Source: Raillietiella orientalis (Eukaryota). Taken from it: DNA of 64,000 bases. Below the pieces are notes generated by a model. The model was not told the origin of the DNA and did no database searches. It was given only the letters and a program-made list of their open reading frames with translations. Below are positions 16,950 through 19,064 of this stretch, one piece after another. Within the stretch, counting starts at the first letter, position 1. Every line of letters begins with the position of its first letter. Location: the NCBI GenBank assembly GCA_036172245.1, contig JAYWIR010000019.1:2480001-2544000 (forward strand), read 5' to 3'. The position numbers and the translations under genes were made by a program.

Positions 16950-19064
16950 GGTAGGAACGGAGGGGGAGAAGGAAGGGGGCTCTATCGCGCCCCGGAGCAG
17001 GCATGCCTCCTGTTTTCCCGACAGGTGGTGCTGCGAGACGGTCGCGGGAACCCTGCTGCTTCTAGGAGCGCGCGTCCCACGGAACAGCCGGCGGAAGGGG
17101 ACAGGTGCTTCAAGACTCTCCCCGACAGGACGCTGGCCTGGGGCTTCGATCCTGAGATTGGTAAGGTTGGGGCACTCGCTGGGATCCAACACCTGGGCTC
17201 TCTCCGGAGGGAGGGGAGGGAAGGCATGTTTTCCGAGAGATGAAACCAAGCTGCAAGACGGAGGGGAGTCCGCGCCTGAGTCTATCATCCGCGCGGGGTG
17301 GCGGCCTTATGTGGATCTCCTTCTGTGCAAGAAATGCACGATGAGGGCGTGAGAGCGAGAAAGAGGCAGGCGACGGCTGCTTGGTGGTGAACCCTTGAGG
17401 GGAAGTGACGTCATGCGCCCCTGCACACGCCTCCGCTTGGGCGCTGAGGTCTTCTCGAGGAAGGAACGAGCACTTCCTAGGGTCGAAGAGAGAATCCTGG
17501 CGGTCCATATAGGACGAGGAACCTCAATTCGCTTGAACTTTCCCCTTCCAATAGAGAGGTGACCACGCCCTCCGATAAATCTCCGGTCGGCACGGCCACT
17601 GGTGGGATGCTCTGGGAGGGAGCTGCTCCTGACGAGAACTGTGGGCAGCAGGCGAAGGGTCGGGTGTGCGTTCTCTCCCTTGCGTTACTCGTCGTCTCCC
17701 GTGCGCGCGCCACTTCCGGTCCCGGTCTCTTCTGAGGAGGGCTGCCCGAGCAACAGCAGACGGATGTTGGCGCCTCATTCCTGGAGTCGCTCTGAAGGTC
17801 TGGTGTCGAGCCTTCTTCTCCATCTCCTGAACCTTTGTGCTGACCGAATCTTCTAGAGAGCGCAAAAGAAAAGGAGGGGAAAAAAAAACTGCAGGCGCGA
17901 CACGCTGATCTCGGGAGGTTCTTTCCTGTTTGGTCGCTTCTCACGCCTTACTGTTCCCAATGCCTGGAGGCGGCGTCCGACGTGTCTTCAGTACTCCATG
18001 CTCCATCATCTCTTGTCTCCGTATTTCTCCCGGCCACGCGAGCCGCTTCCCTTCCCCTCTCTACCAGTGGAGCAGCATCCTTACGGCTAGGTCTTCCGGG
18101 ATCCGGGAGATCCTGGAAAATCCCGTGAAGATGCATGGGCAAACAGAACCTTCCTCGCCTCCTCGCTGCCCTGTCTTAAGGGACATATGGGCAGCAGTCT
18201 TATGAATAGATAGGAGATTGCTGCGGGAATCTCCGGAAGAAGGAAAGGACGGGCAAGCTCACCGACGCTGCAACCCCGATTACCCGACCTCGTGGACTTT
18301 TGCTCTGGGGCGTGCAACTGGGTATTCCGGTGGAAGACCTTCAGTGGACCCCGGTACTTCAGTGGACATCCGTACCCCCCCTTTAAAGTGGCAGTAGTCG
18401 GAGTTGATGCTGTTGCACTGGGGCCTCCCGGCATCATTGGACATGGGAGTGTGTGAATCCAAACTTGTGTGCAAGATGCGGGTAGCGGGGATCCCTCTCA
18501 CACCTCCTAGTGGACCGTGTTGCCCTCCGACCGCTGTGAGGATGCTTTGCCGCGCCCCTTGGAACTCCCTGCGTCAACTCCGTAGATGTGTTAAAGTGTC
18601 TCTTCCTGCACGACTCCCTCACGACGGCCATACCCCCAGCAGCACTTTGCTGCCCACGCGGCGGGATCGTGGCTGCATGGAGCAGCAATGCCAGAGGAGG
18701 CCAGGACGACAGGGACGTCATCTATTTTGCTGTCCTCTTCATGAGGGCAGCGTCAAGATGGCCCCATCTGGGAGTCTTGAAACAGAAACTTGCCGGTATC
18801 CTTACAAGGATGCAGAGGACACCCTCCAGCACACGGTGATCCCTTCCCGAACCCCTCCATTTTTTTGACTGTATGTTTTTCGTTTTATTTTTTTCTTTTT
18901 GTTTGTCTCCCCTTCCCCTGTACTGCCGAAGCGAACCCCGCTGTCCTGTGTGCCAGTTCCCGGCAGGTTTCTCTTCGTATTTACAAGTAACGAGACAGGA
19001 TCAAACGTCCTGCCACTGACATGTATGTTTATTTCATAAATAAACGACCCGGCGTGGCCGGGTG
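16950..19064 (+). mobile_element. Degenerate L1/Tx1-like LINE, RT + zinc knuckle + 3' UTR
   Basis: GWRPYVDLLLCK (17296-17331), RGDHAL (~RVDH), GCAFSPLRY (17662-17688), LLFPMPGGGV, zinc knuckle PNLCARCG*RGSLSHLLVD (~18459-18515), T-rich UTR, AATAAA at 19039-19044 and hairpin acccggc-gtg-gccgggt at 19047-19063. Confidence 0.75.

Follow-up and report, generated by a model that had tools for sequence, protein, structure and literature searches.

A conserved stem-loop at the 3' end is the rule in long interspersed nuclear elements (LINEs) of the stringent type. UnaL2 has its own Rfam family, and elements of the UnaL2/ZfL2 type end in short repeats other than A. In UnaL2 of eel and ZfL2 of zebrafish, the 3'-terminal stem-loop is the proposed recognition site of the ORF2 protein (Hayashi et al. 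2014, PMC4176376). Within the L1 clade, LINE1-1_ZM of maize and L1-1_CR of Chlamydomonas are described as LINEs with stringent 3'-end recognition, and divergence is given as 0.144 in the last 45 nt compared with 0.570 overall (Ohshima 2012, PMC3472496). For the untranslated regions (UTRs) at the 3' end of human L1 and Alu, a stem-loop near the poly(A) end is likewise described, with a role in reverse transcriptase (RT) recognition that is only proposed (PMC5135761). Here we analyze a GC-rich hairpin motif at positions 19039-19064 of a 64,000-nt stretch of Raillietiella orientalis DNA (contig JAYWIR010000019.1, positions 2,480,001 to 2,544,000, hereafter the window), which an earlier note had listed together with further instances as a conserved junction at element boundaries.

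Judged from the letters of the window, the motif is the shared 3' tip of decayed retroposon copies and lies inside the element, as is ordinary for such elements. It may act as a 3'-terminal RNA element for 3'-end recognition in a retroposon family, a reading that we consider evenly poised between right and wrong, and one in which the tip would fold as RNA, a protein would recognize it and the family would be a LINE. Unlike the tails of UnaL2 and ZfL2, those found here are A runs, and there is no match to an Rfam family. The locus resembles the L1-clade LINEs described by Ohshima (2012) in that the last tens of nucleotides are conserved relative to a diverged body and a stem-loop precedes a poly(A) or A-rich tail (PMC3472496); in two of the three pairs of copies here, identity is 0.70 in the motif compared with 0.43-0.48 in the UTR. 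It differs in that compensatory stem mutations and partner short interspersed nuclear elements (SINEs) are described for those LINEs, whereas the present alignment has 0 compensatory pairs and the window has no SINE with this tail (PMC3472496). The same paper describes L1-clade lineages that combine conserved 3' stem-loops with poly(A), which speaks against the earlier note's view that a 3' stem-loop would be atypical for that clade (PMC3472496). The likeness to the human L1 and Alu stem-loop is one of description and not of sequence comparison (PMC5135761). LINE remnants that are likewise old, diverged and inactive, in GC-rich, gene-poor, low-complexity DNA, are described from the coccidians Sarcocystis neurona and Eimeria tenella (PMC4337577); nothing connects the window to either species.

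Boundaries of the copy c insertion

On either side of the family copy that carries the motif at 19039-19064 (copy c) lies an exact direct repeat of 13 bp, ACCAGTGGAGCAG, at 18063-18075 on the left and at 19068-19080 on the right (both + strand). The sequence outside this repeat differs on both sides of the copy, and a repeat of at least 13 nt in the same geometry was found at 20 of 5000 random anchors. This direct repeat is a target-site duplication (TSD). The left TSD ends 29 nt upstream of the position at which family homology starts in copy c, while the right TSD begins 3 nt after ...GGCCGGGTG and directly after ...CCGGGTGTCA. The insertion thus delimited spans 18076-19067, and the motif forms its last 29 nt.

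Because the TSD encloses the motif, the motif lies inside the insertion and is element sequence rather than a regenerated target. In copy c, no A tail separates the motif from the TSD, which fits priming at the terminal motif rather than at poly(A).

Copies of the family

A profile hidden Markov model (HMM) for nhmmer searches was trained on two copies only, d (19.7-20.9 kb) and e (50.5-51.6 kb). This model finds copy c (18228-18608, E 3e-8, and 18711-19073, E 3e-11), copy f (52272-52502, E 5e-18) and copy a (2624-2773, E 1.5e-5, score 15.0). These copies are all colinear, on the + strand and terminate at the motif; none of 10 decoy windows scored above -1.7. When an HMM was restricted to the terminal 76 nt of copies c, d and e, the best matches outside the training sequences were again f (E 0.12) and a (E 0.13), with scores (8.9 and 8.7) barely above that of the best decoy (8.3). 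Copies d and e are colinear over ~1.2 kb at 57-62% identity, and overall pairwise identity among c, d and e is 0.33-0.48 with gaps counted.

On this homology, a single diverged repeat family accounts for five of the six main motif instances, each of them the 3' end of a homologous copy. Of the instances in the earlier note, those at 2753, 19039, 20871, 51553 and 52520 are borne out by homology of their flanks. The one at 10141 is not: its flanks show no homology, and the 10 matches of the covariance model at E<=10 do not include it, such that this instance (b, 10141-10167, + strand) resembles the motif by eye (CGTCGGCCGTGACCTTGG followed by A4) and is unsupported as a family member. None of four weaker variants (7063, 7975, 13209 and 55151) gained support, as no homology or covariance-model search recovered them. 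Candidate extra copies at 44318-44434 (E 0.11), 42130 (covariance model E 0.16) and 43342 (E 1) were not significant. A 20-nt pattern of the motif matched 11 loci in metagenomes, about as many as chance would give, and none had family homology beyond the motif (nhmmer E >=0.8).

The five copies share their 3' end and are shortened to different extents at the 5' end, starting at HMM columns ~1 (d), ~1 (e), ~115 (c), 174 (f) and ~1139 (a). Copy c (18076-19067, + strand) is the TSD-bounded, 5'-shortened copy of ~990 nt; it is also matched by nhmmer over 18105-18621 and 18622-19067, and it ends in ...AAATAAACGACCCGGCGTGGCCGGGTGTCA with no A tail. Copy d (19682-20899, + strand) is ~1.2 kb long, is colinear with e and ends in AAATAAACGTCCCGATGTCACCGGTTAGCA with a decayed hairpin whose fold is not above shuffles. 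Copy e (50514-51582, + strand), ~1.07 kb long and identified by homology and fold, ends in AAGAAACACCGCGGCGTGACCGGGTG followed by A4 and has a hairpin with a one-base bulge. Copy f (52274-52551, + strand; nhmmer E 5e-18 and 1.8e-18) consists of an internal piece (HMM 174-435), homologous to 19847-20072 and 50634-50834, that is joined to CGTCCCGGGGCGACCTGGTG followed by A12; on this homology, f is an internally deleted copy of the family. Copy a (2624-2775, + strand) comprises the last ~150 nt of the family (nhmmer, HMM positions 1621-1804) and ends in CCGACGTGACCGGGT followed by A8. Both a and f were training sequences of the covariance model.

The 5' ends of d, e, c and f (19682, 50514, 18076 and ~52274, respectively) fall within ~175 alignment columns, with d and e apparently sharing the same start. 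This clustering may be due to chance, given the usual bias toward short copies, or the source RNA may have been only ~1.2-1.3 kb long. Two other accounts of how the copies are arranged were rejected. A segmental duplication relating d and e is at odds with their unrelated flanks, and a nested or stacked array is at odds with the findings that no copy starts at the motif of another and that the gaps are unrelated sequence.

Structure and conservation of the 3' terminus

All of the motif strings quoted in the earlier note are present where it placed them. When CCCGGCGTGACCGGGTG was searched for with up to 3 mismatches, 5 matches were found, all on the + strand (2752, 19048, 43342, 51562 and 52523), compared with 0.22 expected, and 0 of 100 shuffles reached 5. 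Since the pattern was derived post hoc from these same sequences, the count of 5 is inflated.

At 19039-19064 (+ strand), the motif consists of AATAAA (19039-19044) and the hairpin ACCCGGC-GTG-GCCGGGT (19047-19063), and it ends 3 nt short of the element end. The consensus of the five ends is AAnAAACGnCCCGGCGTGACCGGGTGAAA. Across the family, the order at the 3' terminus is an AAUAAA-like hexamer, a spacer of ~3 nt, a GC-rich stem-loop of 6-7 bp (ACCCGG-CGUGR-CCGGGU), 1-4 nt, and an A run that is short or absent. Where present, the hexamer lies 20-23 nt from the end; it is a perfect AATAAA in copies c and d, reads AAGAAA in e and is absent from a and f. Copies c and d terminate in CA, the copy endings being GTCA, AGCA, and TG or TA followed by A runs. 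These runs, which match the A-rich 3' tail expected of a LINE, are A4 in e, A8 in a and A12 in f, with only 1-3 A in c and d. Of the 10 invariant columns in the five-copy alignment, 7 are in the hairpin part and 1 is in the hexamer.

The perfect 7-bp stem that the earlier note had drawn at 19039-19064 proved real in folding: 19047-19063 folds at -13.3 kcal/mol (z -2.17), and 7 of 200 shuffles fold as well. The family stem, ACCCGG/CCGGGU, is perfect in copy c, where it is lengthened to 7 bp, while the hairpin is bulged in copy e (z -1.0) and broken in a, d and f.

When c, d and e are aligned, two 30-nt windows stand above all others in mean pair identity: a Cys/His coding remnant described below (0.71) and the terminal 30 nt (0.69), whose value is reached by only 0.4% of windows. 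Identity of the motif and of the 3' UTR was counted on ungapped columns. The motif exceeded the UTR between c and d (21/30 vs 132/308, 0.70 vs 0.43, p 0.004) and between c and e (21/30 vs 148/307, 0.70 vs 0.48, p 0.018). The statement that the motif is better conserved than the adjoining UTRs therefore stands for the two pairs that include c, the most distant copy, but not for d and e. With the terminus in the top 0.4% of 30-nt windows and above the UTR in two of three pairs, the 3' end is conserved between diverged lineages, as in a stringent tail.

The TSD of copy c is still perfect, yet about half of the positions of this copy differ from d and e. Much of the divergence of c from d and e probably arose between source lineages, in which case the tail would owe its conservation to constraint on active elements. 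Third-codon-position identity is below that of positions 1/2 in all pairs (0.54 vs 0.65/0.64; 0.43 vs 0.49/0.50; 0.41 vs 0.51/0.56), a weak hint that the copies may have diverged while still coding.

Coding remnant and identity of the element

The common 3' end, the variable 5' ends, the A runs and the one TSD fit a non-LTR (long terminal repeat) retroposon. The family is an old, strongly diverged retroposon of this kind and probably represents the tail end of a LINE. A remnant of the form CxxCG...H is kept in c, d and e, ~580-650 nt upstream of the end (SPNCLRCGVTESFPHLLL in d, for example). In copy d, this Cys/His remnant was delimited by tblastx conservation to 20168-20266 (+ strand, …SPNCLRCGVTESFPHLLLDYSALEDL…), with equivalents in copies c (18468-18536) and e (50988-51050).

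The Cys/His remnant resembles the zinc knuckle that LINE ORF2 has at its C-terminus. In a protein Atlas search, zf-RVT (PF13966) accounted for 18 of the 30 named matches to the remnant at a score of 0.93, with a recognition value of 2184 that falls below the threshold of 2300. As a lead, the remnant may be the C-terminal zinc knuckle, zf-RVT-like, of a retroelement open reading frame (ORF). The same search with the 147 aa upstream gave F-box clusters at <=0.88, which is chance level. The copies appear too short to reach the RT, and LINE identity is probable from the features above. The window holds no RT sequence of this family to place in the L1 clade.

Proposed role of the 3' terminus

If the terminus acts as an RNA element, it would belong to the element's transcript and would be copied into each new insertion without being part of the target. 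The 3' stem-loop would be the site at which the element's RT engages its own RNA and starts target-primed reverse transcription, in a recognition mode that would be stringent, like that of UnaL2/L2-type LINEs and of the L1-clade LINE1-1_ZM and L1-1_CR. The AAUAAA-like hexamer would serve 3'-end formation. A 3'-terminal RNA stem-loop was one of the two models in the earlier note. Its positional part has held up, in that the motif is the 3' terminus inside a TSD and is conserved between diverged copies, while its RNA function is a matter of interpretation and finds 0 compensatory pairs.

Several results weigh against an RNA element at the tip. All of the evidence comes from five copies within one 64-kb window, and only one of these (c) has a detectable TSD, as expected of a LINE; TSD searches for a, d, e, f, instance b and site h returned nothing convincing. 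Four of the six folded instances (d, f, a and b) fold no better than shuffles. Compensatory changes occur in 0 of 6 stem base pairs of the family alignment, in which 70% of cells are paired; the shuffles pair as well, and 392 of 500 match the covariation score. The stem covariation that the earlier note had named as a mark of an RNA signal did not appear, in a test that is weak evidence either way because dead copies decay neutrally. Between d and e, moreover, the motif is no more conserved than the 3' UTR (18/30 vs 180/286, 0.60 vs 0.63, p 0.7). Finally, AATAAA lies 23 nt before the end of both c and d, which both end in CA, and a polyadenylation cassette could explain part of the conservation.

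Protein searches count on the same side. The Cys/His peptide and the upstream 147 aa match 0 Pfam families at E<=10, and a PDB sequence search with the Cys/His peptide gave only calcium-channel matches (E>=0.8). With the 234-aa remnant of copy d, phmmer returned 1 match among 1.84 billion representatives (E 1.7e-5), a spurious one to a tandem-repeat hypothetical protein. No RT or endonuclease (EN) domain, nor any Pfam family, was detected in 148 stop-to-stop ORFs of >=150 aa in six frames. Likewise, no RT or EN was detected in + strand read-through of 1-25600 and 46501-51600, the DNA upstream of all five copies, where the only Pfam matches were chance ones to low-complexity sequence (Connexin, NST1; E>=0.04). 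A regular expression for RT motifs gave no clusters in the window; for the entire - strand and for positions 25601-46500 and 51601-64000 of the + strand, the scan consisted of this expression and the ORFs of >=150 aa only.

Alternative explanations

The main rival explanation is that the terminus is only a polyadenylation cassette, in which AAUAAA is followed after a spacer of ~20 nt by a CA cleavage site. The element would then be of the relaxed, poly(A)-primed L1-like type and the hairpin incidental. The hexamers lying 20-23 nt from the end in c, d and e, the CA at the ends of c and d, the A runs after a, e and f, and a stem without covariation are all in keeping with this explanation, which we nevertheless judge unlikely. 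What favors the RNA stem-loop is that conservation is greater in the GC part (7 of 10 invariant columns) than in the hexamer (1 of 10), that the hexamer is absent from a and f, that poly(A)-site spacers are not normally conserved, yet the tip is among the two most conserved stretches, and that copy c inserted without an A tail before its TSD. Another possibility, which we regard as rather doubtful, is a short, non-autonomous retroposon of ~1.2-1.3 kb that arose in a GC-rich, protist-like genome from the tail of an L1-like, zf-RVT-bearing LINE and was mobilized via its terminal GC stem-loop and not via poly(A). Such an origin would explain both the four 5' starts within ~175 columns and the tail-less copy c with its TSD.

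Three further explanations are less likely than the polyadenylation cassette. The copies could derive from a host gene, either as retrocopies (processed pseudogenes) of its mRNA or as the diverged 3' ends of a gene family, and the motif would then be the end of that gene's 3' UTR. Retrocopies would likewise have a common 3' end, 5' shortening, A tails and TSDs; no RT or EN was found in or beside any copy, and the 5' ends of d, e, c and f lie as close together as a short source RNA of ~1.2-1.3 kb would place them. Against this, five copies in 64 kb at 33-48% identity, one of them with a perfect TSD, imply several diverged source lineages, which is transposon-like; the coding remnant has zf-RVT, a domain of retroelements, as its sole functional lead; and no homologous host protein was found among the 1.84 billion representatives, so that we find this origin distinctly improbable. 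Far less credible is the second model of the earlier note, in which the motif is the stretch of DNA that the element's endonuclease targets, each insertion restores it and the copies stack into an array. All five copies are on the + strand and form close pairs (c-d, ~0.6 kb apart, and e-f, ~0.65-0.7 kb), as this model would have it, yet the strand bias has a two-sided binomial p of 0.06 and two close pairs among ten possible are not unusual. At copy c, the one testable copy, the model is contradicted, as the TSD encloses the motif and the target, ACCAGTGGAGCAG, lacks the motif and is unrelated to it. Motifs at both ends of copies, which the note had named as a mark of a target role, are missing, with none at the 5' flank of any of the five copies, and their 3' flanks share no sequence. 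Nor is the motif followed directly by the next copy: 614 nt of unrelated DNA separate c from d and ~650-690 nt separate e from f, such that the copies are spaced and not stacked as the array premise had assumed. Equally remote is the 3' end of a Helitron-type rolling-circle transposon with a terminal hairpin. Helitrons have a 3' hairpin followed by a CTRR end, insert at A/T and are not known to make a TSD. A GC-rich hairpin a few nucleotides before a conserved 3' end and variable 5' extents are found here as well, but 0 of 5 copies end in CTRR, copy c has a 13-bp TSD, and A runs follow three copies.

Over the whole window there was no tRNA match and no Rfam match at gathering scores, and at E<=5 Rfam placed nothing over the motifs in 18000-21000 and 50400-52700, the regions around four of the copies.

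Other repeats and low-complexity sequence in the window

No partner SINE with the same tail was found in the window, and the one other repeat pair does not end in the motif. This second family comprises two direct copies of ~345 nt on the + strand (44927-45265 and 53880-54221) that are 76% identical and 8955 nt apart. Its first copy contains a hairpin resembling a tRNA T arm, GCGGGTTCGAATCCCGC, at 44980-44996, with no match to a tRNA model (ARAGORN, Rfam); the family may be a SINE-like element.

The window is GC-rich, at 0.44-0.65 in 2-kb bins, and eukaryotic in appearance. Between 33776 and 40617, stop-free frames of 568, 565, 449, 439 and 361 aa overlap on opposite strands; they are of low complexity, rich in R, S and P, and have no Pfam match. 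Purine/pyrimidine-rich low-complexity tracts at 38185-38600, 23344-23517 (- strand), 27585-27790 and 35957-36136 (- strand) are 69-79% identical to one another, and the tract around 38.2-38.6 kb is internally repeated. Trinucleotide tracts of the CAG/CAA type occur in inverted orientation at ~16230-16430 (+ strand) and 42505-42644 (- strand) and read as poly-Q/N/S in translation. Imperfect palindromes were found by self-blastn at 8824-8898, 58902-58939 and 63266-63299, with self-reverse-complement matches of 78, 38 and 34 nt, respectively.

Implications

The 3' end of the family is a marker that can anchor repeat annotation and separate insertions from flanking DNA. If the short non-autonomous retroposon proved to be the correct account, it would represent a stringent, hairpin-primed system of the L1 type outside plants and green algae. 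If the stem-loop is required, the family would be a further example of a LINE-like element with a poly(A) tail whose 3' end is recognized in a sequence-specific manner. Such a case would involve no new kind of mechanism, and it would bear on whether stringent recognition is ancestral in these elements.

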